From positions 1-34,395 of the forward strand of contig JBAQHC010000431.1 in assembly GCA_049288095.1 (NCBI GenBank): 34,395 nucleotides of DNA. Reading direction: 5' to 3'. This DNA is from Alphaproteobacteria bacterium. GTDB taxonomy: Bacteria > Pseudomonadota > Alphaproteobacteria > CAWBKL01. Shown piece after piece: positions 6,896 through 22,877 of this stretch. How positions within the stretch are numbered: position 1 is the stretch's first letter; each line of letters starts with the position of its first letter. The position numbers and the translations under genes are program-made. The notes beneath the pieces were generated by a model that worked only from the letters and a program-made list of their open reading frames with translations, had not been told where the DNA came from and searched no databases.

Positions 6896-7429
6896 GAGTC
6901 CTCTACATCTCTTGTTCTTGCGCCCGGCTTAGCCTTGGGTCCGCGAGGACTAATTCACGACTTCGGAATAAGATCCACGCGCTGGCGAGTTTAAGCCGCA
7001 ATTTTTTCGCGGCGAAGCAACAAATAAAATCCAGAAATCATCTGTAGATTGGCGTACCGGCGACGAGGCGCCATTTTCACGCGCGCAGAGTCATGGAACT
7101 CGGTCAGGTCCGTCGCGCCATTGCTACGGAGTCGCCGTCGCGTTGCGCGCCATCATATTCGAGATAAGAAAGCGAAACAAGAAACCGGATCGAGGAAGCT
7201 ACCGGCCGACGGCGCGGCCAATGTATGCCGTAGGATTGATCGGGTGATCACCTGCGGGTATGCCCGCGACTTGGCCAGTATTTCCCAGTACGCGCTACCA
7301 GGATGAACGCGCTGCCAGTGAGCCGCGCGATTGTGGCCCCGTATTTATGGTTTCTTATGGGCCTTCACCAAACATAAGCAGCGACACTCGCTGGCAACAT
7401 GCTCTGTCTCGCGAGGACTCGAGCCAATC

Positions 7430-9037
7430 ATGACCCCTACGCATCTCTTGCGCTTTCTCGACCATCATTCGCTCTTGACGTTCGGAGTCGCAGCGAGCCT
7501 CATCGCCGCCGTCACCCTAATCATGATTGGCCGGAAATTGCTCACGCGTATTCGGCGCGCCGAAACGGAGCTTGAACAACTACGCAATCGCATAGGTGCA
7601 ATCTATGCGGCTGTGCCATTCGGCATCTGCGCGATTGAGGATGACAAGCGCATCGTATCAAACGAAAAGTTCAACACTTTATTGCGGCCGCTGATGAAGA
7701 CGGTTTCGTCGAATCAAACCTCCGCACGCACCAAACCGGGCGAACCTGATGCAGGCGACTTGGCTGTGATCAACTATCTGAGACACGAGGACCACGATCG
7801 CGTCGTCAACTTGGATGGCGAAAACTCGATCCTTATCCGGTCAATCCGCGTTCCCGGTTCTAGATACAGGGTTGCGACAGTGGCAAATGTCACTGAGCGC
7901 ATGCGCCTGCAGACGGAATCCGCAGAAGCGAAGGCCAAGGCGGAGCTTGCATCGCTCGTGAATACGGAGTTCAGCGCGAGAATGAGCCGCGAGATCCGGA
8001 CGGCGGTCAGCGGCATCGTTGGCATGGTCGATCTCGCATGTGATGATGGCATCAGCGAGCGGCAAGCAGGCTACCTGCAGAGAATTCATGAATCCGCGTA
8101 TTCCATTCTCGAAGTTGTCGATGACTTGCTGGGCCTATCAAGAGTTGGAACCGCCAACCCGCAGGCCGCCGCTCCGTCCATAGCCATTTCCGCGCATGGT
8201 GCGAGCCCCCCGCCCCCACACACTGAACGGAACACTGAGCGCATCCTTGTCGCCGAGGACAACCCCATAAATCGAGAAGTCATCGAGGGGCAGCTGGCAA
8301 AGCTCGGCTACGAATGCGAGGTGACCGGCGGCGGAGAGCAGGCATTCGAACGCTGGCTGAGTGGCCGTTTCGCGCTCTTGCTCACAGATTGCGAAATGCC
8401 TGGTGTCAGTGGATTTGAGCTCGCCCGGCGCATCAGAGCCGAGGAACTAGCCAAAGGCCTACCGCGAACACCAATAGTTGCGATTACCGCTAACGTTATG
8501 CCAAGTGACAGAGAGCGTTGCCGATCATCTGGAATGGACGATTATCTGGCAAAGCCGTTCTCACTCGGACAGTTGAGAAAAGTCATCGACGCGCGGCTCG
8601 GGCGTGCAATAAGCAGTGCTGCTAGCCAGGAGCACGCCGAAGAAGTTACATCAACGGCGCAATTAAACGAGGGTCAACCGGAGGATAGGCACGCATCGCC
8701 CGCGGTGCTGGATCTCAGTCTCTTGCGCGAGATCTACCCAGATAACGAGTCGAGGATTGGGCAACTGATCGCTCGCTTCTTGGCGATCGCCGACGAAATA
8801 GCCGGCGACATCGATAGGCTGGCCGATCAGCGCAATGGCGATGAGCTAGCTGACGCAAGCCATAAACTTAAATCGTCGGCTCTCACAAGCGGCGCATTTG
8901 CGCTCGCCGAGGTTTGCGGCACCCTGGAAGAGGCTGGCCGGGACTTGGACTGGCTGACAATTTCCGTTGCGCGACATCAGCTGGGCCCAGAACTCGAGCG
9001 GGTTCGCAGAGCAATTGGTGCGTCAGCCGGTAGTTGA
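7430..9037 (+). CDS. Membrane-anchored PAS-DHp(degenerate)-receiver-Hpt phosphorelay protein lacking an ATPase (HATPase_c) domain
   Basis: ORF 7331..9037 opens with TTG. I prefer the ATG at 7430 (MTPTHLL...), which has GAGGA 12 nt upstream. Domains read by eye, in order. TM segment 'LLTFGVAASLIAAVTLIMIG'. PAS-like 'AVPFGICAIEDDKRIVSNEKFNTLL...VANVTERMRLQ'. HisKA-like helix 'FSARMSREIRTAVSGIVGMVDL', with Arg where the phospho-His normally sits. No N/G1/G2 boxes. Receiver 'ILVAEDNPINRE...LLLTDCEMPGVSG...VAITAN...YLAKPF'. C-terminal Hpt 'ASHKLKSSALTSGAFALAEVCGTLEEAG'. Confidence 0.8.
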   Translation: MTPTHLLRFLDHHSLLTFGVAASLIAAVTLIMIGRKLLTRIRRAETELEQLRNRIGAIYAAVPFGICAIEDDKRIVSNEKFNTLLRPLMKTVSSNQTSARTKPGEPDAGDLAVINYLRHEDHDRVVNLDGENSILIRSIRVPGSRYRVATVANVTERMRLQTESAEAKAKAELASLVNTEFSARMSREIRTAVSGIVGMVDLACDDGISERQAGYLQRIHESAYSILEVVDDLLGLSRVGTANPQAAAPSIAISAHGASPPPPHTERNTERILVAEDNPINREVIEGQLAKLGYECEVTGGGEQAFERWLSGRFALLLTDCEMPGVSGFELARRIRAEELAKGLPRTPIVAITANVMPSDRERCRSSGMDDYLAKPFSLGQLRKVIDARLGRAISSAASQEHAEEVTSTAQLNEGQPEDRHASPAVLDLSLLREIYPDNESRIGQLIARFLAIADEIAGDIDRLADQRNGDELADASHKLKSSALTSGAFALAEVCGTLEEAGRDLDWLTISVARHQLGPELERVRRAIGASAGS

Positions 9038-10308
9038 TCGGAATTGAATTCGTCCTTGAACAGATCAACCATCTCCTGGGCGAAGGCATGACGCGGTGTT
9101 GCCACGGCCGGCCGGATGGCCGCCCCCTCGAGATAACGAAACCCCGTTCCGAGCAGCGCTATCACGAGACTTCTTGTCGATAGCCCAAATGCGAATGATG
9201 GAATGTTCTTGGCATCTGCAGCAATGCAGAATTCGCGGGCTCTGGAGACGATACTGCGCTCATCAATCGTCCCATTAGGGATGGAAAAGCCCACACATGC
9301 CGTCTTCGTGTTTACGAAACGCTCCACACCAACGTCGCCGCAGCCGATACACGCATAGATCGCGCGACTATATTGCGAGAGCTTTGGAAATTCCTGAGCG
9401 ATGCGAATATTTGGCAGACCGGAATCGAGCCCGTGAACACATGCAATCAGATCCTGTGAGACCTCGCTGTGTAGGGAATTGAGAGCGGCCTTGAATGGTA
9501 TCCAGGCCTTCGATCTCGCTATCGTCGACCAGTGAACGGGAAAGACGATGAGGACCCTGCGATTTTGACTCCTGAGTTCGCGCACCTTCTGCGCGCAGTC
9601 CTCGAGAATTCTGAGATCAATCTCGACTTGCTCTTCGGTTTCCTCAGCAACCGGAAATTGCGAACCGCTTGGTTCGGCAGCGCGTAGATGGGGCCTGCAG
9701 AGATACGTGACAACGACCCGCCTGAACGTATCCCAGACGGGACTATATTTGAATTCCACGTCCGATAGGTCCGCGACGACCGCAGCACCAAGCGGATCGA
9801 TCAAGCGAATTGATCGACGCTTGTCCTGCTTCGGCGATGAATCCGCTGTTTCGGCCACCTCACCGTCACGATCGAATATCGTCTCAACACCCTTGGCCTC
9901 AAGCATTGTATCCAGAGTGGCCTCAACATTCACGTCTTCGCTCAAAATCGAGCCGTCCGCGTTGCATGTCACCGTTCTCACGCGCACGATGTCTTCATCT
10001 TCGCCGAAGAGCTTTCGGCAAACGCCCTGAGCGATCTTTGCGCATATCAGAGATGACTCGTTGATATCGCGGTCCTTGAAGAGCACGACGTAGGCAAGCT
10101 CGTCTATTTGAAAATAGACATCACCGTCTCCGAGCTCATTTGTAATTGCTCGCTCTACCGTTATCGAGATGTGGGAACGCGATTTCTCCCATCTGTCGCC
10201 TAACTTCTCGCGTATGCGCGAAAGGCCGATCATCTGGAGTTTGCCTGCGGCAACGGTCGGATTGCTCCCCAGCAGCGCCGTGATCTTCTCTGTGAGCGGC
10301 TGCGCCAT
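8977..10308 (-). CDS. Hypothetical protein with degenerate GGDEF-like N-terminal and degenerate EAL-like C-terminal domains (inferred)
   Basis: 443-aa ORF starting 3 nt after the stop of the upstream receiver gene. The N-terminal segment 'LQMIGLSRIREKLGDRWEK...DVYFQIDELAYVVLF' follows the GGDEF-fold pattern but lacks GG(D/E)EF. The C-terminal segments are 'YSPVWDTFRRVVVTYLCRP', 'VFPVHWSTI', 'DLIACVHG', 'IYACIGCGD', 'SFAFGLSTRS' and 'GFRYLEGAAIRP'. They line up with the EAL-domain blocks YQPIxxLxxGxxxGxEALxR, sVNls, ElTE, alDDFG, AEGVEt and GxxxxQGxxxxxP, with every catalytic residue replaced. The CDS call is solid; the domain call is by eye only. Confidence 0.7.
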   Translation of the reverse strand: MAQPLTEKITALLGSNPTVAAGKLQMIGLSRIREKLGDRWEKSRSHISITVERAITNELGDGDVYFQIDELAYVVLFKDRDINESSLICAKIAQGVCRKLFGEDEDIVRVRTVTCNADGSILSEDVNVEATLDTMLEAKGVETIFDRDGEVAETADSSPKQDKRRSIRLIDPLGAAVVADLSDVEFKYSPVWDTFRRVVVTYLCRPHLRAAEPSGSQFPVAEETEEQVEIDLRILEDCAQKVRELRSQNRRVLIVFPVHWSTIARSKAWIPFKAALNSLHSEVSQDLIACVHGLDSGLPNIRIAQEFPKLSQYSRAIYACIGCGDVGVERFVNTKTACVGFSIPNGTIDERSIVSRAREFCIAADAKNIPSFAFGLSTRSLVIALLGTGFRYLEGAAIRPAVATPRHAFAQEMVDLFKDEFNSDQLPADAPIALRTRSSSGPS

Positions 10309-10311
10309 CGG

Positions 10312-10752
10312 CTATTTCGACTTCCAGCTCGCTTCGGTCGAGGAGACTGAGCGCCCCCACAAAAGCTGCGCGGCATGATCAAGCAGGGTTGCCGGCTTAA
10401 TCGGCTTCTTGAGCACGACGTTCGCGCCGAAGCGATCGGCAATGACGAGGAAATCCTCAATCTGTTTCCTGCCGCCGCCGCTGATCGCGATAACCTTCAT
10501 ATCCGGGTATTTGCGCTTCACTTGGATAAGAGTTTCGAGTCCCTCTTTTTCCGGCATGATGATGTCGAGGATGATGAGGTCTGGCGTCCGTAACGAAATC
10601 TCTGCCAGGGCAAAGTTGCCGTTCTCTGCAACGGAAACAGTGCATCCTATCCGCTCGAACAGCTCCTTCGTCAGAGTACGAACAAGTTCGTCATCGTCGA
10701 CGACGAGCACGTGCTTGAGGATCGAACGTTTAGTCACGTCGGTCGTTTCCAT
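10312..10752 (-). CDS. Single-domain response regulator (CheY-like receiver)
   Basis: 146 aa. Motifs 'VLVVDDDE', phospho-acceptor 'LIILDIIMPEKEG', 'VIAISGGG' and 'VVLKKP' show that all canonical receiver residues are present. Confidence 0.9.
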   Translation of the reverse strand: METTDVTKRSILKHVLVVDDDELVRTLTKELFERIGCTVSVAENGNFALAEISLRTPDLIILDIIMPEKEGLETLIQVKRKYPDMKVIAISGGGRKQIEDFLVIADRFGANVVLKKPIKPATLLDHAAQLLWGRSVSSTEASWKSK

Positions 10753-11056
10753 AACCGGTACCCGTGTGACGTGAGAGCTGATCCGATTTCTAGCCCCAAC
10801 CGGTTGAACAGGAGTGAATCAATCGCAGGTGTCGGCTTCTCAATGCCGACAAAAGTTCCGTCTGGAACGTTCAGCGCCGACGAATTCGCGGAGCGGCAGA
10901 AACTGACAAACCTTGCTGCAAATTAAGTCCGCGTTATTCGCTCGACGCGGTGGAGCCCGCACGCGCAAATCTGGTTAGCGTTCGCTAACCTAGCCGATGC
11001 CAACTTGCCTTGAGGCGACAGGTTCGCTCTTCCCAACATCGAGCATAGATTGCGCA

Positions 11057-11449
11057 CTATCTCTTTCGCACCCCTCCAGGGGAGCGCAATTCGTCCAGAT
11101 AATGAGACAACTGGTCGATACCATAAGGTTTCACAAGAACCAGAATGTTTAAGCCATCCCCTTCGGTCGCAATGTCCTCGGCGTTCTTGTCGCCGGTTAG
11201 AACGACAATGGGTATGCCCTGAAAGCTATAGGGACTCTCAGAGATAGTTCGAAGCAAGACGCGCCCGCTCATTTGCGGCATATAAACATCGGTGATCAAG
11301 ATGTCCGGCCGTAACTCCTGAAGACCGGCCAGTGCGTCGAATGCCTTCTGATACACGATTGGCGTAAAGCCTCCCCTGCGGCAGACATCCGACAGAATCT
11401 CTGCGGTAACTGGGTGGTCCTCGACGATTACAGCGACTAGTTCTTTCAC
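11057..11449 (-). CDS. Single-domain response regulator (CheY-like receiver), divergent from the chemosensory operon
   Basis: 130 aa. Motifs 'VAVIVEDHP', 'ILITDVYMPQMSG', 'IVVLTGD' and 'LVLVKPYG' show an intact receiver signature. Confidence 0.9.
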   Translation of the reverse strand: MKELVAVIVEDHPVTAEILSDVCRRGGFTPIVYQKAFDALAGLQELRPDILITDVYMPQMSGRVLLRTISESPYSFQGIPIVVLTGDKNAEDIATEGDGLNILVLVKPYGIDQLSHYLDELRSPGGVRKR

Positions 11450-11742
11450 CTGCCGGACTCGATCTCAGTTCAGTGCGCCAGCGTTCAAGCTAGCGTCAGC
11501 AAGCTAACGCAGCGTTGAACCCTGCTGCGATCAGTAGAAGACCTTAGAGCTATCGCCTCAAGAAGCTGACATTCGTTGCGCGTAATTTGCGCCGAAGAAC
11601 GATTTTGCGACAGAGTTCCAGAGATTGTGCTGATGGGAACTCGCACTTTTCGGAAAATTTACGCTCCTCCTTTACAGGCTAACCTACCTGCTCGTTGCGT
11701 AATCCCGAGACTCCATCCGCGTCATCGAGTGGCAGAGCGCAA

Positions 11743-12261
11743 ATGGCAATCAGCACTGCACAAACGGGAACTGAGTTCGCGTTGGGGCCGGGGTTATCGC
11801 CGGGTCACGCGCCCGCAATGGCCATGCCATGGTTGATGTTCCGTACTGCCGGGCACGTTGCCGCTCTTCCAATTTCACACGTGGTTGAGACGCTGCGGGC
11901 CTTGCCTATCGAATCTGTGAGCGGTGCACCGCCTCATGTGATCGGCCTCTCGATTATCAGAGGCGCACCAACCGCAATCGTCGACACGGCATTGCTGTTT
12001 GGGCGCGAGCCGACCAAACATCAGCGCACCGTAGTGGTTCGTGTGGGTGAGCGCACGATAGGGCTGGCGGCCGAGGAAATCCTCGGCGCCCGTGCCATTG
12101 GCAGCGAGGCACTGGAGCGGTTGCCGTCGCTCTTCGGAAATGTCGAATCGGTTAGCGCGGTCACAATTCGTGATGAAATGCTCGTGTTTGTCTTGGAGGC
12201 GGCGCGCATCATCTCGGATGAGTTGCTCGCAAGCCTCCTCACTCAGGGTACGCGAGCATGA
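11743..12261 (+). CDS. cheW: CheW-like coupling protein
   Basis: ORF 11695..12261 opens with TTG. The ATG at 11743 is chosen, but 11818 (MAMPWLMF...) is also possible, so the start is uncertain. CheW-domain pattern: 'WLMFRTAGHVAALPISHVVETLRALPIESVSGAPPHVIGLSIIRGAPTAIVD...GLAAEEILG'. Its stop overlaps the next start (ATGA at 12258..12261). Confidence 0.85.
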   Translation: MAISTAQTGTEFALGPGLSPGHAPAMAMPWLMFRTAGHVAALPISHVVETLRALPIESVSGAPPHVIGLSIIRGAPTAIVDTALLFGREPTKHQRTVVVRVGERTIGLAAEEILGARAIGSEALERLPSLFGNVESVSAVTIRDEMLVFVLEAARIISDELLASLLTQGTRA

Positions 12262-13763
12262 TCGCGCAAGCGCCCGAGGATCAAGCAGAGCGGTTCCGTG
12301 GCGTCATCGCCGATCGAGTTGGCCTGCGCTTTGAGAACAATAAGCTCGGAATGCTCGCAGAGATATTGCACCGGCGATCAAAGGCGCTCAATTGCAATGC
12401 CGACGTTTATCTTTGGCAATTGGAGCATGACCCACCAAGGAACGAATGGGGCGCGCTTGCGAGCGAGCTGACCGTCGGCGAGACATATTTCTTCCGCAAC
12501 TCCGAGCAGTTTGCGGCGCTCGCCGAAGTCGTTCTGCCGGAGCGCATGCGCATTCGCGCGGGCAAGCCCTTGCGCCTTCTCTCGGCCGGTTGCTCTTCGG
12601 GTGAAGAAGCCTATTCCCTGGCCATTATCGCGCGCGAAACGCTCGACAACGTATCAAGTGCCGTCGAGATTCTCGCAGGCGACCTCAACCCCGCTGTCTT
12701 GCGGCGGGCCGAGCGTGCCCATTATTCCTCTTGGGCACTGCGCGAAACGCCGCCTGAGATGCGCGCCAGATGGTTTCGCCGCGACGGCAATGAGATGGTG
12801 CTCGACGACTCCATCCGCTGCGCGGTCAAGTTCGAAACCGTAAATCTCGCCGACGATGATGCGTATATCTGGCAACCCGGCGCTTATGATGTCGTTTTTT
12901 GCCGCAATGTGCTCATGTATTTCGAGCCCGAGCAGATGCGAGCTGCCATTGCGCGCATAGCGCATTCGCTCGCGGCGGGCGGTTTTCTCTTCCTGGGGCA
13001 TGCGGAGACGCTTCGCGGCATCTCCGACCGCTTCAACATCGTCAACACGCACGAGACTTTTTATTATCGGCTGAAGGAGGCCGACGAGCCCGCGCAAGAG
13101 CGAGTCGTTAGGCTGGTACCGCGCCGTCCGATACAACATCCGCCATCGCCAATCGCCGACACATCCTGGTTTGATCAAATCAAACGCGCGAGCGAACGCG
13201 TGGCCCAGCTTGTCCCGCTCGCAGAGACGACGGAGGCGACGCCTGAGCAAGCGCCCGCGCTGTTCGATCCCAGCTCCGTGCTCGAGCTTATGCGCAAGGA
13301 GCGATATGCCGATGCGCTAAGCGTCGTGCGCGAAGGCGTGCCATCGAGTGCCCTCAACCCCCAATCCATATTGATCGAAGCGATCCTCTTGACGCATGGC
13401 GGTCAGCTCGCCGCAGCAGAAGCTCTCGCCATGCGCCTCCTTGCGATCGATAGTCAGAATGCAGCTGCGCACTATGTGCTTGCGCTTTGCAGCGAGCATG
13501 CAGGCCTCGCCGAGCGCGCCGTGGAGCATCATCGCACAGCGGCGCGGATCGACCCGAGCTTTGCGATGCCGCGACTGCATCTTGGCCTTCTCACGCGCCG
13601 CGCTGGCGAGCGGCAGTTGGCGCGTGATGAGTTTGCGAAAGCACTGTTCCTGCTGGCGCGCGAAGACGCGCAGCGCCTCATTCTCTTTGGCGGCGGGTTT
13701 AATCGCGACGCGCTAATGGCCCTTTGCAGCTCCGCGCTTGCGGAATGCGAGGCTCGCTCATGA
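12258..13763 (+). CDS. cheR: CheR-type protein-glutamate O-methyltransferase with C-terminal TPR region
   Basis: 501 aa. It has 'ETYFFRN' and the SAM-binding 'LRLLSAGCSSGEEAYSLAI' and 'YDVVFCRNVLMYF'. The C-terminal ~170 aa is helical and TPR-like ('AAHYVLALCSEHAGLAERAVEHHRTAARIDPSF'), as in WspC-type CheRs. Confidence 0.9.
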   Translation: MIAQAPEDQAERFRGVIADRVGLRFENNKLGMLAEILHRRSKALNCNADVYLWQLEHDPPRNEWGALASELTVGETYFFRNSEQFAALAEVVLPERMRIRAGKPLRLLSAGCSSGEEAYSLAIIARETLDNVSSAVEILAGDLNPAVLRRAERAHYSSWALRETPPEMRARWFRRDGNEMVLDDSIRCAVKFETVNLADDDAYIWQPGAYDVVFCRNVLMYFEPEQMRAAIARIAHSLAAGGFLFLGHAETLRGISDRFNIVNTHETFYYRLKEADEPAQERVVRLVPRRPIQHPPSPIADTSWFDQIKRASERVAQLVPLAETTEATPEQAPALFDPSSVLELMRKERYADALSVVREGVPSSALNPQSILIEAILLTHGGQLAAAEALAMRLLAIDSQNAAAHYVLALCSEHAGLAERAVEHHRTAARIDPSFAMPRLHLGLLTRRAGERQLARDEFAKALFLLAREDAQRLILFGGGFNRDALMALCSSALAECEARS

Positions 13764-14263
13764 GCACGCCGGCGACGAAATTGTTACCGAGAGCGCTGGA
13801 GTTGCGCCGCGAATTTGATCGCAGCTTCGCGCTTGCCCCAAGTGCCGGCGAGACGGCAAGGATCGAGCTCCTTGCCATCAGCGTTGCCGCAAATCAATTC
13901 GCGCTGAGACTTTCGGACGTTGCCGGCATTTATGCCGACAAGCGAATTACGCGTGTGCCTGGCGCAGCGCCGTCAATGCTCGGCATCGCCGGCTTTCGAG
14001 GCTCGATTGCGCCGATATACGATCTCGCTCGCCTCATGGGTCAGCCGCAAAGTCACGCGCCGCGTTGGCTGGTCGTCGCGCGGGCAGCCCCAATCGCCAT
14101 TGCCTTCGACGGCTTCGACGGCCAGCTGCGCCTCACTGCAGACGCAATCAAACCGCAGCAGTCGCGCGATGCACATGACTACACAAAAGAGTTCGCTCAG
14201 ACCGAAGGCGGCCTCCGGCCGATCATCGATCTGCAGATGGTAATTGAGACAATCAAGGCTTGA
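13760..14263 (+). CDS. cheW: CheW-like coupling protein (second copy)
   Basis: ORF 13724..14263. The ATG at 13760 forms an ATGA overlap with the cheR stop (13760..13763). CheW-domain pattern: '[54 protein letters not shown]'. Confidence 0.85.
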
Positions 14264-14298
14264 GGAAGAGCCCACAACGCTCAGTAGGGAGCAAGTCG

Positions 14299-15771
14299 AT
14301 GTTTGGAAATATCACCGTTGGCAAGAGACTCGTATTGGGCTTCGGCGCGGCGGCGTTGACGCTTCTCGCCATTGCGTTCGCTTCTTATCTCAGCATCACC
14401 AAGTCGATCGAAAACGACTCTATGGTTCGGCACACTTATGAGGTTCGCGACAAGATCCAGGATGTCGTCACCGGCCTCCTTAGTGGCGAAACAGGCGTTC
14501 GAGGTTTTGTGATCACCGGCGACGACAGCTATCTCGAACCATATAACGCTGCGCTGAGCGATGTTCCGGCAGCGATCGATAGCCTTCGCAAGCTCACTGT
14601 AGACAATCCTCACCAAGGGCAGCGCTGGGATACCCTCGCACCTTTGCTCGATACTAAATGGGACCAGCTTCGCCAACGCGTCGATGCACGGCGCACCGAG
14701 GGTTTTGACGGTGCCCAGAAGCTTGTGCTCACGAATACGTCCAAGGCGACCATGAACCGGATTCGGTCGATTCTGAAGGATGCCGACGATGAGGAGGCAA
14801 ACCTTCTTTCACGTCGTTTGGAAGCATCAACCTCAAGCGCGCACTTCACGCTTTCGTTCATGATGTGGGGCGGCCTTTTCGGCACCTTAATTGTCGCCAC
14901 GATTGGCTGGCTCATCGCCCGCTCTCTCGCAGCGCAAATAGGCACGGCCGTCGGCCAGGTGAACGGGTCATCGACCGAATTGCAGGCCGCAGCCAATCAA
15001 CAAGCCTCCGGCGCCAAGGAGCAAGCCGCGGCGATGACGGAGATCAGCACAACGATCAGCGAGCTCTTGGCGACATCGCGCCAGATCGCCGAAAGCGCAC
15101 AGCGCGTCGCGCGCAATTCCGAGCAGACGGCAAATGCAGCACGCTCCGGCCATAGCACAGTCGATCTTACTCACGACTCAATTTCCGGCATCAAGCGCCA
15201 GGTCGATCAAATCGTTTCGCACATGCTCGATCTTGGCCGGAAGTCGCAGGAAATCGGTTCGGTGCTCGACATTGTTTCGGAGCTCGCCGAGCAGACCAAT
15301 ATTCTTGCGATCAATGCCACCATCGAGGCGGCAGGGGCTGGCGAATCCGGCAAGCGCTTCGCGGTCGTTGCAGAAGAGATCCGTAAGCTCGCCGATCGCG
15401 TCGGCGACTCGACGAAGGAGGTGCGCACCCTGATCGAGGATGTGCGCAGCGCCGTGAACACAACAGTCATGGCTACAGAGACAGGCTCAAAAGCAGTCGA
15501 CGCCGGAACACGCCAATTCGGCGATGTCGCAACCGCCTTCAAGCAAATCGCCACGCTCGTGACGACAACGACGGATGCTGCGCGCGAGATCGAGCTCTCG
15601 ACCAAGCAGCAATCAACGGCCGTCGAGCAAGTGAACGTTGCGATCGCCAATGTGACGCAGGCTTCGGTCGAGACGGAAACCAGCGCCGGTCAGACGCTGC
15701 AAACCGTGTCTCAGATGGCAACGCTCGCTAAGGATCTTCTGAAGATCATTCAGCCGAAACGCGCCGCGTAA
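14299..15771 (+). CDS. Methyl-accepting chemotaxis protein with periplasmic CHASE3 sensor domain
   Basis: The ATG at 14299 has AGGGA 8 nt upstream. TM1 is '[17 protein letters not shown]'. The CHASE3 signature is '[43 protein letters not shown]'. TM2 is '[20 protein letters not shown]'. The MCP hairpin tip reads '[38 protein letters not shown]'. Confidence 0.9.
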
Positions 15772-15774
15772 CAT

Positions 15775-17820
15775 ATGGCCGCCGACCCTTACAGATATTT
15801 CAGGCCCGAAGCCGGCGAGATTATCGAGCAATTCTCGCGCGGCATGCTCGATCTCGAAAAGGGCGGCGACGGTGCGTCAACTCTACAGCGCCTATTGCGG
15901 CTCGCACATACGCTCAAGGGCGCCGCTCGCATCGTCAAGCAAGCCGAAATCGCCTCGCACGCGCATGCGATTGAAGACATCTTGTCGCCGTTGCGCGCCA
16001 CGCCGGAGAGAGTTGGCCGGGGCGAGATTGATGCGGTTCTTGAACATATCGATGCCGTTGGCGCGCAACTGCGCACACTGAGCGCTCCGCTTCAATCCGG
16101 CCAAACGCCGACAAAGAGTGAGGCAGAAGAGCCCGCGCCGCGAACCATTCGCGCCGATCTTGCCGAAACCGACGCCATGCTCGACAGCCTGATCGAAACC
16201 CGCGCGCTCATGAGCGGCGTGCGCACCGCCGCCGACGAAATCAATGGAGCGAACACCGCCATCGAGCTGCTTGTGCACCTTCTTGGCTCGCTGCCGCCGG
16301 AAATTCGAAACGGGCGCCCCTCGCTGCAAAGCCCCATCGCCATCGCCGAGGAGCTCAAGCGGAAGTTCGACTCGATCGCGCGAGCGCTTGATTCCAGCCT
16401 GGACCGAATGGACCGCGAGCTGCGTCAACTGCGGGAGCGTGCGGAGCGGCTACGCCTCATGCCAGCGGCCGATTTGTTCATTGCACTCGAGCGAACTGCA
16501 CGCGACACGGCGCGCGCGGTCGGCAAACAAATCACGTTCACTGCCAATGGCGACGATGTGCGGCTCGATGCACATATTCTCGAAACACTTCAACGCGCGC
16601 TCATCCAGATTGTTCGAAATGCCGTTGCGCATGGAATTGAGATGCCCGCCGACCGGAGAGCCGCGGGAAAGCCCGCGTCCGGCTCGGTCTCGATCACGAT
16701 TGCGCGGCGCGGCCGGCAAATTACTTTCCGGTGCCGCGATGATGGCCGGGGCCTTGATCTTGAGCGTGTGCGCGCATCGGCACTACAGCGCGGACTTGTA
16801 GGAGCCGACGGCAAAGAGCTGGGCTCGGGGGAGCTGATGAGACTCCTGCTCCGCGGGGGGATCAGCACATCTGCCACCGTAACGGAGGAGGCAGGGCGAG
16901 GGATCGGGCTTGATATCGTGCGTGAAGGGATCGAACGCCTTGGCGGCAGTGTCGAGTGTCAGAGCACGCCCGGCTTGGGCACGACTTTCGAGCTCATCAT
17001 CCCGCCATCACTGACCTCGCTGGAGGCGCTTCTGGTCGATGCGGGCGCAGAGGGCAGCGTTATGGCAATTCCCCTCGCCGCGGTGCGTGCGACGTGTCGC
17101 TCTGCGTCGTCTGGCATTTCAGTCACAGCATCGGGCGCTTCGATTCTGTATGATGAAGCTGCAATCCCGTTCTTGCCGCTCGCAACTGCACTGGACGATG
17201 CTTCGTGGCCAAGAACGAAGAGTTGGGCAACCGTTATTATCGGCGGCTCTGAAGGCGCTGCGGCCATTGGAGTCGAGCGTCTGCTCGGTACTGCCAACAT
17301 CGTCATCCGGCCGCTGCCGCAGCATATGCACGCAAGCCCCATCATCGCTGCGGCCTCGCTTGACGCCGACGGCAATCCGCAACTCGTGCTCGATGCGGAA
17401 AGACTCATTGAAGCCGCGCGCAACGGCTCCGGAACTCTCGACAAGAAGGCTCCGAAAGTAGCTGTGCTCGTCGTTGACGACTCTTTGACGACGCGCATGT
17501 TGGAGCAGGGCATTCTTGAGGCCGCCGGCTTTGAGGTTGAAACCGCGGTTTCGGGCGAAGAAGGAATCGAGCGTTTACGCAACCACAACTTCGCGGTGAT
17601 CCTCGTGGATGTCGAGATGCCGGGGATGGACGGCTTCACCTTCATTGAGCGGATCAAGTCGAACCCGGCGACGCGGAATATTCCTGCGATCCTTGTGACA
17701 TCGCTCAATGAACCATCGCATCGCGAACGCGGCCGCGCCGTGGGCGCGCACGGCTACATCGTGAAGAGCGAATTCAATCAAGCGGAGCTGCTCGCGATGA
17801 TCCGGCCTTTGGTGGCGTAG
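15775..17820 (+). CDS. cheA: CheA-type histidine kinase with fused C-terminal receiver (CheA-REC hybrid, WspE/CheA3-like)
   Basis: 681 aa. The P1 Hpt is 'LLRLAHTLKGAARIV'. Kinase boxes are 'IVRNAVAHGIE', 'RDDGRGLD' and 'GRGIGLDIV'. A P5 CheW-like region follows. The receiver reads 'VLVVDDSLTTRM...ILVDVEMPGMDG...ILVTS...YIVKSEF'. It starts 3 nt after the MCP stop. Confidence 0.92.
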   Translation: MAADPYRYFRPEAGEIIEQFSRGMLDLEKGGDGASTLQRLLRLAHTLKGAARIVKQAEIASHAHAIEDILSPLRATPERVGRGEIDAVLEHIDAVGAQLRTLSAPLQSGQTPTKSEAEEPAPRTIRADLAETDAMLDSLIETRALMSGVRTAADEINGANTAIELLVHLLGSLPPEIRNGRPSLQSPIAIAEELKRKFDSIARALDSSLDRMDRELRQLRERAERLRLMPAADLFIALERTARDTARAVGKQITFTANGDDVRLDAHILETLQRALIQIVRNAVAHGIEMPADRRAAGKPASGSVSITIARRGRQITFRCRDDGRGLDLERVRASALQRGLVGADGKELGSGELMRLLLRGGISTSATVTEEAGRGIGLDIVREGIERLGGSVECQSTPGLGTTFELIIPPSLTSLEALLVDAGAEGSVMAIPLAAVRATCRSASSGISVTASGASILYDEAAIPFLPLATALDDASWPRTKSWATVIIGGSEGAAAIGVERLLGTANIVIRPLPQHMHASPIIAAASLDADGNPQLVLDAERLIEAARNGSGTLDKKAPKVAVLVVDDSLTTRMLEQGILEAAGFEVETAVSGEEGIERLRNHNFAVILVDVEMPGMDGFTFIERIKSNPATRNIPAILVTSLNEPSHRERGRAVGAHGYIVKSEFNQAELLAMIRPLVA

Positions 17821-17822
17821 CC

Positions 17823-18896
17823 ATGGCAAAACTTCGTGTCCTTGTTGCCGATGACTCAGAGACCGTGCGCAAGCGCATCGTCGAATCATTGGCCGCCGAT
17901 CCTGGAATTGAAGTCGTTGGCGAGGCCGAGGATGGGCAGCGCGTGATCGAGCTCTGCCTGCGCACGAGCCCCGACGTGATCACGATGGACATGATGATGC
18001 CAATCATGACCGGCGTGGCAGCAACCGAATACATCATGGCGCATCAGCCGACGCCGATCTTGATTGTGTCCTCTTCCTTCAATCGCGGGGAATTGTTCAA
18101 GATCTATGATGCGCTTGCGGCAGGCGCCGTCGATGTCTTGGAAAAGCCGACGGGCGAAGAGGCCGAGGGCGACTGGGAAGGCCGGCTGATTGCGGCGGTC
18201 AAGCTCGTCTCGCGGATTAAGGTGATTACCCATCCGCGCGCGCGCCTGGGCCTTGAGCGTTCGCGCCGGTTGGAAGGCGCAGTCCCTGACCGCGGACGTG
18301 CCGCTGTGGGCCAGCTCGAAGTTGCGGCAATCGGCGCATCGACCGGAGGCCCCGGCGCAATCGTCGAAGTGCTGCGCAAGTTGCCGCCGAGCTTTCAAGT
18401 TCCGATTCTCATCGTGTTGCACATGAACGAGCCGTTTGGCGCAGCTTTCATCGATTGGCTGGATGCGCAAATCAATCGGCCGGTCAGCGCCGCGCAAGAT
18501 GGCGCGCGCGTTGAATCAGCTAAGGGCCGTGTGCTGGTGGCACCATGTGGCAAGCACCTCGTCATTCGCGACCGCACGGCATTTCTCACACTCGGCCCTG
18601 AGCGGCATTCTTGCCGGCCGTCAGTCGACACGCTCTTTGAATCAATCGCACCGGAATACGGCCCGGCCGCAGCGGCATGCCTGTTGACCGGCATGGGCAA
18701 AGACGGCGCGCTTGGCCTCTTACGAATTCGCGAGGCCGGCGGCATTACCATTGCGCAAGACGAAGCCTCATCTGTCGTTTACGGCATGCCGCGAGAGGCA
18801 GTGCTTCTGGGTGCCGCGCTACAAATCTTGCCGATCGGTGAAATCGGGCCGCGCCTTGCGGCCTTGCAAACCGCTCGGATGGAGGCCCTTGCATGA
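17823..18896 (+). CDS. cheB: Protein-glutamate methylesterase/deamidase CheB (REC + methylesterase)
   Basis: 357 aa. The receiver is 'VLVADDSETVRK...VITMDMMMPIMTG'. The esterase catalytic blocks are 'AIGASTGGP', 'IVLHMNEPF' and 'LTGMGKDG'. Confidence 0.93.
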   Translation: MAKLRVLVADDSETVRKRIVESLAADPGIEVVGEAEDGQRVIELCLRTSPDVITMDMMMPIMTGVAATEYIMAHQPTPILIVSSSFNRGELFKIYDALAAGAVDVLEKPTGEEAEGDWEGRLIAAVKLVSRIKVITHPRARLGLERSRRLEGAVPDRGRAAVGQLEVAAIGASTGGPGAIVEVLRKLPPSFQVPILIVLHMNEPFGAAFIDWLDAQINRPVSAAQDGARVESAKGRVLVAPCGKHLVIRDRTAFLTLGPERHSCRPSVDTLFESIAPEYGPAAAACLLTGMGKDGALGLLRIREAGGITIAQDEASSVVYGMPREAVLLGAALQILPIGEIGPRLAALQTARMEALA

Positions 18897-21823
18897 GCGG
18901 CACAGCCCTCATCGTTGACGACAGCTTGACCGTGCGCATGAATTTGGTCGAGCTGCTAAGTGACGCCGGTATTCAATGCGTTGCCTGTTCGACGTTGGCG
19001 GAGGCGAGGCGCGCCGTTGCCGAGTTCAGTTTCGCGCTCATCATCCTCGATATTCTTCTGCCCGACGGTGACGGCATCGAGCTGCTCAGAGAAATTCGCG
19101 CCAATCCGCTGACGAGCAAGACGAATGTCATGTTGCTCTCGACGGAGGCTGAGATCCGCGATCGTGTGCGCGGGCTGTCGACCGGTGCCGATGAGTATGT
19201 CGGCAAGCCCTATGATCCAAGCTATCTCATGGCGCGCGCGCGGCAACTCGTGCGCCAAGCGACGGCCGAAGGCCGGGAGACGCGTGAAACTATTCTCCTG
19301 ATCGATGACAGCGTTACTTTTCGGGAGGCGCTCAAGAGCGCGTTGGAACAAGCCTCCTATCATGTTGTCGTCGCCGGCACGGGAGAGGAAGGCCTTAAAC
19401 TCGCGGCGGACATCACGCCCTCGGCGATCGTTGTCGATGGCGAGCTGCCCGGAATCGATGGACCGACCGTGATTAGGCGAATTCGCCTTGATGCTGCCCT
19501 GCGCGAAATGCCTTGTTTCCTCCTTACGGGCTCAGAGGATCGCGAAGCCGAAGTACGCGCGCTTGAAGCCGGCGCCGATGCGTTCGCGCGCAAGGAAGAC
19601 AATCCGAGCGTGATCATTGCACGGATCGCGGCGATGCTGCGCGCTTCCAGAGAACAATCTATGCGCGCCGATACACGCAGCCTCCAAGGACCGAAGAAGG
19701 TGCTGGCAGTCGATGACAGCGAAACCTATCTGCAGACGCTTGCAGAGGCTCTGCGCACGAACGGCTATGAAGTGATCCTGGCCCGGTCGGGCGAGCAAGC
19801 TTTGGAGCTCCTTACGGTCGAGACCGTCGATTGCATTTTGCTCGATCTTCTGATGCCGGGCATTGGAGGGCGCGAAACCTGCCACCGCATCAAAAACGCG
19901 CCGGCCATCAGAGACATCCCGGTCATCATGCTGACTGCCGTCGAGGACCGCGAGGCGATGATTAGCGGCCTCGGCGCCGGCGCCGACGATTATATCTCCA
20001 AGTCGAGCGACCTTGAAGTCGTGCGCGCGCGCGTGCTCGCTCAGATCCGCCGCAAGCGTTTCGAGGACGAGCACCGGATCAGCCGTGAGCAGCAACGCGT
20101 GGCGCTGCAGATTCAACTGGAGCGCCTCAATCTCTTGAGCGAGATCACACGCGCGATAGCCGCACGACACGATCTAACCAGCATCTATCAAGTTGCGCTT
20201 GGCAACTTGGAAGAGCAGCTGCCAGTCGACTTCGCTGGTGTGTTCGTGCTCGATGAAGCAAGCAATGTCTTCTCCGTCATCGTCGGACCAAGAAGTCGCG
20301 AGATAACCATCAACTTCGCTCTACCCGGGCGCGCTTCGCTGTTCTTTGCCAAGGAAGATGTCGAACGCGCCGTCGGAACGCGCCAGATCTACGAGCCCGA
20401 CATCCAAGAGATCGAATCGACTCTCTCTCAGCTTCTTGCAAAGAACGGCCTTCGATCCCTCGTCATAACCCCGCTCCTTTCAAGCGGGACCGTGTTTGCT
20501 TTTCTGGTTGCCGCACGAGCGGCGATCGATGCTTTTAGCGGCATGGACTGCGACTTTCTCCAGCAGCTGAGCGAGCACATCAGCCTCGCGGTGATCCAGG
20601 CTAAGCTTCACCGGAATCTTCAGGATGCCTACGACGATTTACGGCAAAGCCAGCATGCGGTGATGCAGCAAGAACGTCTCCGGGTAATCGGTCAGATGGC
20701 GAGTGGCATCGCACACGACATCAACAATGCGATGACTCCGCTTGCCGTGATGACGCAACGCTTGCTTGAATCCCAACACGATCTGCGCCCCGAACTCACC
20801 AAGTATTTGAACGTCGCAAAGCTCGTGACGGACGATGTCAGCGCTACCGTTGCGCGGATGCGCGAGTTCTATCGCGAGCGCGAGCCTCAAGTGGCGTTTG
20901 TGCCGGTCAGCTTGAACACTTTGATCGATCAGGTTGTGGAGCTGACGCGCGCGAGATGGAGCGATATGGCCCAGCGCGCGGGCATAGTCATAGAGGTGAA
21001 GCGCGAGCTCACCCCTGATCTGCCGGCAATAATGGGAATTGAGAGCGAGATCCGGGAAGTTCTGACAAACCTGATTTTCAATGCTGTGGACGCAATGCCG
21101 CGCGGCGGCACCCTGACGCTACGCACTCGGTGCACGGAGCTGAAAGACCCCGGCCCGGGCGAGCGCGTGATGCTTGAAGTCGCAGATACCGGAATAGGAA
21201 TGGACGAGACAACGAGGCGCCGCTGCACCGAACCCTTCTTTACGACGAAAGGCGAGCGCGGCACGGGGCTTGGCCTCGCCATGGTTCACGGTGTCGCCAA
21301 GCGGCATGACGCCAATCTCGAAATCGATAGCGCCCAAGGAAAAGGCACGACCTTCCGTCTCGACTTTGCGGTGGCCGGAACACAGGAGGAAGGGGCTAAT
21401 TCGGCCTCCGCCCTTGAGACCAATACGGCTCCACCGATGAATGTGCTGCTGGTTGATGATGATCCCATCATTCTTGAAGTCATGCAGTCGACCTTGGAAG
21501 CGGACGGGCACAAGGTCGTCGCCGCCAATGGCGGACGAGAGGGCGTGACGGCATTCGCGGATGCGCTCGACAGACACGAGCCGATCAATGTTGTTATCAC
21601 CGATCTCGGCATGCCCAACATGAACGGGCTCGAAGTGGCGAAGGCGGTTAAGACGCTGCGAAGCGGAACCCCGATTATCCTTCTGTCAGGCTGGGGCCGC
21701 AAAATGGATGCTGAGCACGACAGCTTAGGCCAGGTCGACTTCACTCTCGCCAAGCCGCCGAAACTTCCGGACCTCAGAGCGGCAATGGTTGCGTGCTCAA
21801 AGCTTCAGGGAAGGCTTCGCTAG
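18893..21823 (+). CDS. Multi-receiver hybrid histidine kinase: REC-REC-REC-GAF-like-HisKA-HATPase_c-REC
   Basis: 976 aa, with an ATGA overlap with the cheB stop (18893..18896). REC1: 'LIVDDS...IILDILLPDGDG...MLLSTE...YVGKPYD'. REC2: 'LLIDDS...IVVDGELPGIDG...FLLTGS...FARKED'. REC3: 'LAVDDS...ILLDLLMPGIGG...IMLTAV...YISKSSD'. A GAF-like region follows ('LSEITRAIAARHDLTSIYQVALGNLEEQLPVDFAGVFVLDE'). The H-box is 'MASGIAHDINNAMTPL'. The N/G boxes are 'LTNLIFNAVDAM', 'ADTGIGMD' and 'GTGLGLAMV'. REC4: 'LLVDDDP...VITDLGMPNMNG...ILLSGWG...LAKPPK'. Confidence 0.9.
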   Translation: MSGTALIVDDSLTVRMNLVELLSDAGIQCVACSTLAEARRAVAEFSFALIILDILLPDGDGIELLREIRANPLTSKTNVMLLSTEAEIRDRVRGLSTGADEYVGKPYDPSYLMARARQLVRQATAEGRETRETILLIDDSVTFREALKSALEQASYHVVVAGTGEEGLKLAADITPSAIVVDGELPGIDGPTVIRRIRLDAALREMPCFLLTGSEDREAEVRALEAGADAFARKEDNPSVIIARIAAMLRASREQSMRADTRSLQGPKKVLAVDDSETYLQTLAEALRTNGYEVILARSGEQALELLTVETVDCILLDLLMPGIGGRETCHRIKNAPAIRDIPVIMLTAVEDREAMISGLGAGADDYISKSSDLEVVRARVLAQIRRKRFEDEHRISREQQRVALQIQLERLNLLSEITRAIAARHDLTSIYQVALGNLEEQLPVDFAGVFVLDEASNVFSVIVGPRSREITINFALPGRASLFFAKEDVERAVGTRQIYEPDIQEIESTLSQLLAKNGLRSLVITPLLSSGTVFAFLVAARAAIDAFSGMDCDFLQQLSEHISLAVIQAKLHRNLQDAYDDLRQSQHAVMQQERLRVIGQMASGIAHDINNAMTPLAVMTQRLLESQHDLRPELTKYLNVAKLVTDDVSATVARMREFYREREPQVAFVPVSLNTLIDQVVELTRARWSDMAQRAGIVIEVKRELTPDLPAIMGIESEIREVLTNLIFNAVDAMPRGGTLTLRTRCTELKDPGPGERVMLEVADTGIGMDETTRRRCTEPFFTTKGERGTGLGLAMVHGVAKRHDANLEIDSAQGKGTTFRLDFAVAGTQEEGANSASALETNTAPPMNVLLVDDDPIILEVMQSTLEADGHKVVAANGGREGVTAFADALDRHEPINVVITDLGMPNMNGLEVAKAVKTLRSGTPIILLSGWGRKMDAEHDSLGQVDFTLAKPPKLPDLRAAMVACSKLQGRLR

Positions 21824-22171
21824 CGACGAAGGAAAGAACCCCATTCTTAATTGAGATCACGGATTCAAACACAAGTGCTCTTCCGACTATGCTTCTCACC
21901 GTTTGATTGCCTACGCTCAGTGCGGCTTCACAAAGCCTCCAGTTTTGCTGGTACGGGGCCGAGCTTGAACCGGCACGGGCCTTTCGACTGTACGGAATTC
22001 ATACCACTTAGGCTTCGCCACCCGGGCCGCAATGCCAAAGGCACCGGCGGGTTCGTCGTTGCTACAGGTACACGCCGTACCGGGCACTCGGCGAACGCGC
22101 CACGGACGCGATCAAGTTGCTCAAGTTTCGAAGACGTGAGAGTTGCGCGGCGGCGGCCTCGCCCCGGGCAT

Positions 22172-22366
22172 TCAGAATTTGTGGTTGATACCCGCCTGCT
22201 TCAAGATCGCGTTGGCGGTGTGCCGGGACTTCACGCCCGCATCCACGGTGAAGCTGCGCTTGGTTATCGGGCTAAACCAAATCTGATGGTCGCCCTTCCC
22301 GTTGCGCACAAATCGGCAGTCGTGCTGCCGCAGGATTCGAATGATGTCGCCGATATAGCCGGCCAT
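22172..22366 (-). CDS. hicA: Type II toxin-antitoxin system toxin, HicA/YcfA family (mRNA interferase)
   Basis: 64 aa: 'MAGYIGDIIRILRQHDCRFVRNGKGDHQIWFSPITKRSFTVDAGVKSRHTANAILKQAGINHKF'. This fits the HicA pattern (xxLxxxGxxxxRxxGSHxxxxxP....tvP.H...l..GTl.sIlkQAGl). Its start overlaps the upstream stop by 1 nt (TGATG). Confidence 0.85.
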   Translation of the reverse strand: MAGYIGDIIRILRQHDCRFVRNGKGDHQIWFSPITKRSFTVDAGVKSRHTANAILKQAGINHKF

Positions 22367-22614
22367 CAGGCGGCGGCGGTGATCACGTCTGATTTACCGC
22401 TAGGCGACACAACTTGAAACTGGATGGTGCCCTTGTGGCCGCGATCGAGGACCCGGTTCTCGAAAAGCATCTCGGGAACCATGACCTGAAGCTTGGCGAT
22501 AAGCGCTTTAGCGTCGGGCGCCTCAGTCACCAAGCCGGGCACGTCGTCGCTGGTCGCGACCAGCACGCCGGCCTCGGGGTCCCACATCGTCTGAACGCTG
22601 TAGACCTTGTCCAT
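22366..22614 (-). CDS. hicB: HicB-like antitoxin (DUF1902-type N-terminal HicB fold, no obvious DNA-binding domain)
   Basis: 82 aa: 'MDKVYSVQTMWDPEAGVLVATSDDVPGLVTEAPDAKALIAKLQVMVPEMLFEN...'. This matches the short DUF1902/HicB_N type that pairs with YcfA/HicA toxins. It is translationally coupled to hicA. Confidence 0.7.
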   Translation of the reverse strand: MDKVYSVQTMWDPEAGVLVATSDDVPGLVTEAPDAKALIAKLQVMVPEMLFENRVLDRGHKGTIQFQVVSPSGKSDVITAAA

Positions 22615-22800
22615 GGAAATGAAGGTTGGTCCGAATAGCCTAACATTTCAATGCATGGCGCATCAAAAATCGGATGCGTTGCAGGAACGCTCCCGGCTAA
22701 CCGAAGGTTGCTTCGGAGCCCTCAGACCACCGAGCTCGTTGCACAGCCCAACCATATCGAATCGTGACCATTTATTAAGTCACTGATTTCTATATATGAT

Positions 22801-22877
22801 TGGCGCACCGGGCAGGATTCGAACCCACGACCCCTAGATTCGTAGTCTAGTGCTCTATCCAGCTGAGCTACCGGTGC
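22801..22877 (-). tRNA. tRNA-Arg (anticodon ACG), CCA encoded
   Basis: The reverse complement reads GCACCGGTAGCTCAGCTGGATAGAGCACTAGACTACGAATCTAGGGGTCGTGGGTTCGAATCCTGCCCGGTGCGCCA. Acceptor stem GCACCGG/CCGGTGC. D-arm GCTC/GAGC. Anticodon stem CTAGA/TCTAG with loop CTACGAA (ACG). T-arm GTGGG-TTCGAAT-CCTGC, which includes two G-U pairs. Confidence 0.93.

Follow-up and report, generated by a model that had tools for sequence, protein, structure and literature searches.

Described systems and the locus under study

Chemotaxis-like (Che-like) cascades that include additional hybrid kinases have been described before, as have Hpt relays, tRNA-linked islands and GGDEF-EAL proteins of the degenerate type. 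In Pseudomonas, for instance, the Wsp system is a chemosensory pathway linked to cyclic di-GMP (c-di-GMP)-type proteins. In the Che3 system of Rhodospirillum centenum, the kinase CheA3 phosphorylates a receiver of a second kinase, CheS3 (PMC3868531). Chemotaxis-like cassettes of the "alternative cellular function" (ACF) kind are common, most of their outputs are obscure, and many end in bare receivers. Here we describe a signaling locus at positions 7430–21823 of a 34,395-nt stretch of alphaproteobacterial DNA (the whole stretch is hereafter "the window"), where such a cassette (module A) stands beside a second gene set (module B) encoding a kinase-less Hpt carrier (HptP), two lone receivers (REC146 and REC130) and a 443-aa protein (p443). 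Gene content and distribution suggest that the interval is a lineage-specific juxtaposition of two signaling modules with separate histories. Tentatively, and at somewhat less than even probability, we propose that the chemoreceptor array drives a four-step His-Asp-His-Asp relay through a kinase-dead Hpt shuttle, ending in a lone receiver and a dead GGDEF-EAL protein (i.e., a split response regulator). If true, chemotaxis-like pathways would gain a new type of output, and the locus would show an autonomous two-component system losing its own kinase after capture by a neighboring chemosensory cassette.

The window is the entire contig C431. This is the longest of the 788 contigs in a metagenome-assembled genome (MAG; G000: 4.2 Mb, 94.9% complete, 59.7% G+C) whose GTDB order holds this genome, one congener (G001) and nothing else. 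Genes were mapped from a listing of open reading frames (ORFs) and from Pfam/NCBIfam scans of the window proteins, and the domain inventory that a first, sequence-only reading of the same DNA had drawn up withstood these scans. Response_reg domains number nine, as that reading had counted: one in HptP (ORF 7331/7430–9037), one in each of REC146 and REC130, one in CheA, one in CheB and four in the 976-aa hybrid kinase of the cassette (HK976). When the nine were aligned with Escherichia coli CheY, every one was seen to keep the acidic pair, the phospho-acceptor Asp, Thr/Ser87 and Lys109. The two Hpt domains, in P1 of CheA ("AHTLKG") and at the C-terminus of HptP ("SHKLKSS"), both keep their His. 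Within the interval, HATPase_c is confined to CheA and HK976, and the catalytic cores of both are complete (in HK976, the H box "IAHDINN" plus the N, G1, F and G2 boxes are present), while the single pseudo-DHp, in HptP, has Arg for His and a deleted ATPase domain. The scans found neither a DNA-binding nor a catalytic output domain in the interval, and no GGDEF match by Pfam; the "degenerate GGDEF/EAL-like" label given earlier to the 443-aa protein is nonetheless correct, as there is a fold match and both catalytic motifs are absent.

A kinase-less Hpt carrier and its partners

HptP (7430..9037, + strand; Pfam and alignment) comprises a transmembrane segment, a PAS-like region, a dead DHp, a receiver with its phospho-acceptor Asp and then an Hpt domain with its His, the order of a tripartite kinase being retained. 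Its HisKA match (E 8e-12) reads "MSREIRT" where five relatives have "MSHEIRTP," and ~290 alignment columns, covering the ATPase domain and the linker that follows it, are absent relative to the homologs P0015–P0020. Among the 120 HptP homologs listed from 5.8 billion proteins, HptP is the sole protein with a HisKA match but without HATPase_c; four are REC-Hpt matches without either domain. Since both the phospho-accepting His and the entire ATPase domain are lost, HptP is unable to charge itself by autophosphorylation. To judge from these remnants, it is the relic of a tripartite hybrid kinase, now probably used as an Hpt shuttle.

The candidate effector, p443 (8977..10308, − strand), has no Pfam, NCBIfam or PDB sequence match, and its profile found nothing significant in the PDB. 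The AlphaFold model (mean predicted local distance difference test score, pLDDT, 77.6) was compared by Foldseek and gave full-length matches to tandem GGDEF-EAL structures, LapD being the best (E 7e-15), with further matches to MorA, PA0575, DosP and FimX; those to LapD, MorA, PA0575 and DosP extend over 420–470 columns (E 7e-15 to 1e-9). At the catalytic motif positions, "QIDEL" and an invariant "YLC" stand in place of GG(D/E)EF and EAL. Across the family, 60 columns are invariant and the degenerate motifs, too, are conserved; most metal-binding positions seem replaced (by eye, in the family alignment). By its modeled fold, then, p443 is a tandem GGDEF-EAL protein without either catalytic motif.

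Both lone receivers were identified by Pfam and by the CheY alignment. REC146 (10312..10752, − strand) ends 3 nt before the start of p443, and a REC146-like gene lies directly upstream of p443 in L015, L016, L017, L122 and L124–L127 as well as in eight of 14 distant loci, so that the pairing is seen in nearly all contexts that show the upstream side of p443. REC130 (11057..11449, − strand), the lone receiver at the module junction, is confined to the close relatives of the window (it is present in L121 and L124) and has one homolog at E ≤ 1e-10 among the 5.8 billion proteins.

Members of the p443 family also occur in other company. On contig C722 of G000 itself, a divergent 459-aa ORF (L011:12-1391, minus) is a distant p443 relative (20% identity, E 9e-7, no Pfam match) and lies upstream of the genome's second, classical che operon (PAS-MCP, CheY, CheA, CheW, CheR, CheB). 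A 33%-identical relative in G317:C11 (L142:9045-11525) is preceded by the C-terminal receiver of an HK-REC hybrid kinase, not by a lone receiver. A 35%-identical relative without a receiver partner, in L013 (JGI 3300044679, 10001-21203), adjoins exopolysaccharide genes (Bac_transf, YjbF, YjbH, Poly_export, and Wzz), neighbors which hint that the family may act on polysaccharide export.

Relatives of p443 are few: a word-based search among 5.8 billion proteins matched just ten, and a six-frame search over 401 genomes of the class found distant relatives (23–34% identity) in 31. Relatives with at least 53% identity conserve a convergent gene that ends in an Hpt domain, and the upstream parts of this gene vary. 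In L015 it encodes a kinase, with HATPase_c ahead of REC-Hpt. In L123 (P0014) it encodes REC-Hpt with an N-terminus cut by the contig end, and carries the post-ATPase linker of full kinases. In both the window and L017 it encodes dead DHp-REC-Hpt (the L017 protein is 68% identical to HptP and has the same "MSREIRT"), and in L122 an Hpt-only protein of 207 aa. As relatives with a complete kinase exist (L015, L123), the kinase-less state is derived; and as Hpt, lone receiver and p443 are the constant elements, these loci point to Hpt, REC146 and p443, acting in that order, as the putative functional core of module B. The convergent arrangement is conserved in all of them, with a 3′ coding overlap between HptP and p443 of 61 nt in the window (8977–9037) that is kept in L017 (1885–1945); the corresponding genes overlap by 15 nt in L122, by 4 nt in L123 and not at all in L015.

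Selection on module B was gauged by the ratio of nonsynonymous to synonymous substitution rates (dN/dS) against L017 and L121, which is 0.07 for p443, 0.06 for REC146 and 0.08 for REC130, and which within HptP rises from 0.10 in Hpt through 0.14 in the pseudo-DHp and 0.21 in REC to 0.49 in the N-terminal sensor part. A module that has lost its kinase His, its ATPase domain and both catalytic motifs of p443, that has atypical codon usage and in which selection on the HptP N-terminus is relaxed could be a decaying, non-functional two-component remnant carried in an island. We consider this very improbable: the low dN/dS values of p443, REC146, REC130, Hpt and pseudo-DHp (0.06–0.14) disfavor decay, no module B reading frame is broken, either in the window or in several independent assemblies, and the p443 family conserves its invariant columns, degenerate motifs included.

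The same values bear on another alternative, in which HptP is mainly a modulator. Here the His-less DHp would heterodimerize with the DHp of HK976 or of another kinase, or the receiver would drain phosphate, and module B would tune the cassette instead of receiving its output. RetS heterodimerizes with GacS, and a comparable role for HptP would accord with the strong purifying selection on a pseudo-DHp that is not phosphorylatable, with the identity of "MSREIRT" in the L017 relative, and with a receiver that retains all phospho-residues. The likeness to RetS is a background analogy, however, and Hpt is both the most constrained part of HptP and the only part kept in L122, which argues for phosphotransfer through Hpt as the core function; a mainly modulatory HptP appears unlikely to us.

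A seven-gene cassette without an output domain

Module A starts divergently from REC130, and its genes are co-directional (+ strand), their ends overlapping or abutting. They encode CheW1 (11695..12261, likely start ATG 11743; CheW E 9e-23), a CheR methyltransferase with a C-terminal TPR-like extension (12258..13763; CheR E 6e-50), CheW2 (13724..14263; CheW E 3e-16), a chemoreceptor (MCP) with a CHASE3 sensor domain (14260..15771; CHASE3 E 8e-39, MCPsignal E 1e-39), a CheA-REC hybrid kinase (15775..17820; Hpt, dimerization, HATPase_c, CheW-like and REC domains by Pfam), CheB (17823..18896; REC plus methylesterase by Pfam) and, as the second kinase of the cassette, HK976 (18893..21823; REC-REC-REC-GAF-HisKA-HATPase_c-REC by Pfam). 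The ACF core set (MCP, CheW, CheA, and CheR/CheB) is thus found in one operon, together with traits typical of ACF systems: a CheA-REC fusion, a CheR-TPR fusion (though TPR_11 gives just a weak match, E 0.004), a pair of CheW, and a neighborhood free of CheY/CheZ and flagellar genes. The CheR-TPR fusion has been linked to ACF clusters in a reference cited in PMC5907407. By gene content, module A is a self-contained cassette of the ACF kind, resembling Che3 and Wsp.

A survey with CheA as query and one genome per GTDB species returned 80 loci. In 44 of these, the seven genes (CheW-CheR-CheW-MCP-CheA/REC-CheB-[REC x3 kinase]) are colinear, in the order and spacing of the window. The carriers span about seven phyla (Alphaproteobacteria, Burkholderiales, Myxococcota, Acidobacteriota, Planctomycetota, Actinomycetota, and one Anaerolineae). 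The best CheA matches are from Alphaproteobacteria (61% and 57%), and MCP identity across the cassette loci is 48–73%. A limited literature search found no experimental description of the seven-gene triple-receiver cassette, and its spread over some seven phyla is new. All 49 post-CheB kinases (HK976 included) begin with the triple-receiver head, in which the phospho-acceptor positions are invariant or nearly so; HisKA is present in 47 and HATPase_c in 46, PAS in up to seven, HWE_HK in one, and GAF in HK976 only. Kinases without a C-terminal receiver are often followed by a lone receiver gene (14 of the 35 ORFs found downstream; three loci were checked one by one). Both the distribution of related cassettes and the genes downstream of them indicate that the absence of an output domain is the norm for this cassette.

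After the lone receiver, at least nine cassette-bearing genomes encode a third hybrid kinase, REC-(PAS/GAF)-HisKA-HATPase-REC (L041:15594-17162, L049:15035-17101, L053:14290-16239, L042:15189-17168, L069:16584-19610, and others). The C-terminal half of HK976 scores 130–143 bits against these third kinases vs. 82–123 bits against in-cassette kinase cores, and HK976 may therefore be a condensed fusion. It has a C-terminal receiver (REC4) and no Hpt of its own, and there is no Hpt partner within the cassette. When Hpt/ChpT-like proteins were looked for near the other cassettes, L077 alone turned up, with the Hpt inside a full kinase: this Burkholderiaceae MAG carries a complete MASE4-HisKA-HATPase-REC-Hpt kinase (L077:2426-5419, minus) that is divergent from the cassette. 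The single HPTransfase match was weak and lay within a kinase.

The junction between the modules

From hand counts of base composition, the sequence-only reading had suggested that the left part of the interval was acquired separately and plugged into the che module. A separate origin of the two parts is indeed supported, though by distribution across genomes far more than by composition. No che neighbors were found at the distant module B relatives L013 and L016; at the latter, the p443 relative adjoins PAS and PilZ proteins. As to composition, the proposed contrast has the right direction but had been given the wrong size (~50–55% vs. ~63% G+C): 7.0–11.5 kb has 55.6% G+C and the che-plus-kinase part 60.2%, against 59.7% for the genome, which places the left part at the 1.9th percentile and the che part at the 51st among 1228 genome windows of 4.5 kb. 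The genes of HptP, p443 and REC130 have a G+C content at third codon positions (GC3) of 0.60–0.62 (6th–9th percentile) and a codon-usage likelihood in the 4th–9th percentile, and REC146 is typical in both GC3 and codon usage. The che genes mostly fall in the 20th–40th percentile for GC3 and codon likelihood, with CheW1 lower (12th for GC3, 3rd for codon likelihood). Homologous left parts are low in G+C as well (55.0% in L017, 53.8% in L121), so that low G+C is a stable property of module B. The contrast between the halves is real but modest. Outside the signaling block, a trypsin-like peptidase gene (26669–27541) is the most atypical gene of the window (GC3 0.488, 1st percentile; codon likelihood 3rd percentile), more so than every gene of the block.

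The two halves also co-occur elsewhere, so that the sequence-only reading escapes one of the refutations it had named, a failure of the halves to occur together in other genomes. CheW1 and the divergent REC130-REC146-p443 set stand in the arrangement of the window in L121 (an ENA assembly) and L124 (a JGI assembly), which are mutually independent and come from other samples. Nucleotide identity at the junction is ~77%, and synonymous sites are nearly saturated (dS 0.8–1.2). A chimeric contig as the cause of the composition step is ruled out, because these two assemblies span the identical junction. A promoter/terminator scan of 6.8–12.0 kb gave matches no commoner than in shuffled sequence.

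An inverted version of the junction occurs in a more distant relative, L122, where the order is REC148, p443, the convergent Hpt-only gene and a divergent CheW. Amino-acid identity to the window is 60% for p443 and 60% for Hpt, and the CheW, at 55%, is closer to CheW1 than that of any of the 80 GTDB loci (≤44%); in L122, the module again stands at the start of a che cassette, with its orientation inverted. Wherever an Hpt carrier was seen beside a che gene, it was a kinase-less one, albeit in a small sample. Together with an adjacency that survived inversion, this suggests capture of module B by the cassette in this clade and a later loss of the module's own kinase.

Both modules within one variable region

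On the far side of the kinase gene, a tRNA-Arg(ACG) gene (22801..22877, − strand), the sole match of an Rfam scan, has its 3′ end toward the signaling block. Between kinase gene and tRNA lies a toxin-antitoxin pair identified by family scans (22172..22614, − strand), comprising HicB-like (DUF1902; 22366–22614) and HicA (22172–22366) genes. A repeat search found a 14-nt direct repeat with its proximal copy (GATTGGCGCACCGG, 22798–22811) overlapping the tRNA end and its distal copy (GATTGGCGTACCGG, 7047..7060) in the PagL-HptP spacer, the latter a candidate left boundary. The copies match in 13 of 14 bases, no second match of this kind turned up in 22.7 kb, and 300 shuffles of the 435-nt PagL-HptP intergenic region never yielded a repeat of the tRNA end.

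The flanks of the block are syntenic in G001 on a single 700-kb contig, where the proteins are 64–89% identical and the tRNA is identical in sequence. The conserved left flank comprises an AAA/APH protein, an L,D-transpeptidase and a PagL-like protein, and the right flank tRNA-Arg(ACG), a 204-aa ORF, an S58 peptidase and a gamma-glutamyltranspeptidase. The block at 7.05–22.8 kb of the window is missing from this syntenic site, a different ~37 kb stretch being there instead, and the G001 genome as a whole has no ortholog of the window CheA (best match 29%) or of p443. Given this absence from G001, together with the adjoining tRNA end, the HicAB pair and the repeat, both halves are part of one ~15.8-kb accessory segment (~7047–22811) adjoining tRNA-Arg—a joint accessory status that the sequence-only reading had missed. 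In G001, a 540-aa large serine recombinase (L030:4766-6420) abuts the identical tRNA, and no repeats of the tRNA end were found in the 44 kb to its left. The tRNA-Arg(ACG) gene looks like an integration hot spot in the genus.

Candidate signal flow

Building on the observed parts list, residues, folds and distribution, we infer every phosphotransfer step as follows. The CHASE3 chemoreceptor would control CheA, and CheA~P would phosphorylate one or more N-terminal receivers of HK976, thereby setting its kinase activity (as CheA3 does with CheS3). HK976 would autophosphorylate on its His and pass the phosphate to its own C-terminal receiver, REC4, and REC4 (or the CheA receiver) would pass it on to the Hpt His of HptP. 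From Hpt, the phosphate would go to REC146, with REC130 perhaps a second branch or a sink. Finally, REC146~P would act on p443, which would work through ligand or partner binding, not catalysis. The series wiring alone, from HK976 REC4 or CheA REC through Hpt and REC146 to p443, is plausible and close to an even call. The "one branched phosphorelay" envisaged by the earlier reading may likewise apply, and it gains support from the kinase-less state of the Hpt carriers seen beside a che gene.

Several results weigh against such a relay. No p443 lies within 10 kb of any of the 44 colinear cassettes, 40 of which come with at least 4 kb of sequence upstream of CheW1; within the same distance an Hpt protein is found at L077 only. 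Other kinases that could feed HptP are many in G000, which has at least three other CheA genes. REC130, REC146 and REC4 were each considered as the ortholog of the post-kinase lone receiver of other cassettes, and the comparisons, with at most 40% identity and low scores, gave this no support. All loci with the adjacency may belong to one poorly sampled clade and could have inherited it without function, and the contigs of L015 and L123 end too soon to reveal a nearby che cassette. As for the segment, no integrase, recombinase or mobility gene was found in 7.0–22.8 kb, and the direct repeat is just 14 nt long with one mismatch.

Two insulated systems could thus lie side by side, the signal of the cassette going no further than HK976 REC4 or an unlinked receiver, module B taking its phosphate from a hybrid kinase encoded elsewhere in the genome, and the adjacency being due to common descent in one segment. 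We hold this to be a serious possibility, though somewhat less likely than the series wiring. It would explain why the cassette is autonomous in 44 genomes, with the lone receiver encoded just downstream of the kinase as its end point in the 14 of 35 noted above, why module B relatives own a kinase, and why the two parts differ in composition, and the many other kinases of the genome would serve it well. Yet the adjacency outlived an inversion in L122, whose Hpt protein has neither kinase nor receiver, the junction is conserved despite near-saturated synonymous sites, and HK976 has a C-terminal receiver for which the cassette offers no Hpt partner.

The relay from the chemoreceptor array to p443 has the merit of being specific: the locus is a testable candidate for an output route that combines an Hpt shuttle with a lone receiver and a degenerate GGDEF-EAL protein. 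Related loci, in which the kinase is complete, dead or reduced to Hpt alone, could, moreover, show how a two-component system is rewired beside a new phosphodonor. This set of related loci, which hints at stepwise rewiring, is new, as is the attachment of a kinase-dead tripartite-kinase relic and a split receiver/GGDEF-EAL unit to a Che3-like cassette.

Comparison with described systems

Among tRNA-linked islands, the block would be at home in that it abuts a tRNA 3′ end, is bounded by a short direct repeat of this end, carries a toxin-antitoxin pair and is absent from the sister genome. Unlike typical islands, it is without an integrase, its repeat is short and imperfect, and its che part has a genome-typical composition.

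HptP can be aligned over DHp, REC and Hpt with tripartite (unorthodox) kinases of the BarA/TorS/ArcB type, and is 30–41% identical to PAS-HisKA-HATPase-REC-Hpt kinases. It differs from them in having Arg for the phospho-accepting His and a deleted ATPase domain and linker, and cannot autophosphorylate. Similarly, p443 resembles the degenerate c-di-GMP receptors LapD (its best structural match) and FimX in its tandem GGDEF-like plus EAL-like fold with lost catalytic motifs, but shares 8–16% sequence identity with them, has no Pfam match, and lacks any membrane, HAMP, PAS or fused REC part, its receiver being a separate gene.

The window and Wsp have in common a pair of CheW, a TPR-extended CheR, a CheA-REC hybrid kinase and a CheB. 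The terminal protein of Wsp is WspR, an active REC-GGDEF cyclase that WspE phosphorylates directly, whereas in the window no such terminal cyclase follows CheB and the gene in its place encodes a hybrid kinase. The only GGDEF/EAL-type protein of the window, unlike WspR, is separate, motif-less, on the other strand and ~1.4 kb from CheW1. The Comamonas Flm cluster was considered as a further Wsp-like comparator and proved to be the wrong one, as it belongs to the type IV pilus (Tfp) class according to its own paper.

The R. centenum Che3 cluster (PMC3868531), compared here by domain and gene content, is alike in having an MCP, two CheW, CheR, CheB, a CheA-REC hybrid and, headed by receivers, a second hybrid kinase, and in encoding no output domain within the cluster. 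A second kinase with N-terminal receivers in a che cluster, the Che3-type trait, is what HK976 is; the further combination of PAS, HWE core and lone CheY3 is found in neither HK976 nor REC130/REC146. Specifically, the N-terminal receivers of HK976 number three and are all intact, whereas CheS3 has two receivers, of which one is non-phosphorylatable; CheS3 contains PAS and an HWE kinase core and works with the lone CheY3, whereas HK976 combines GAF with a HisKA core and carries a further receiver fused at its C-terminus. Che3 includes neither an Hpt carrier nor a GGDEF-EAL protein, both of which the window locus has.

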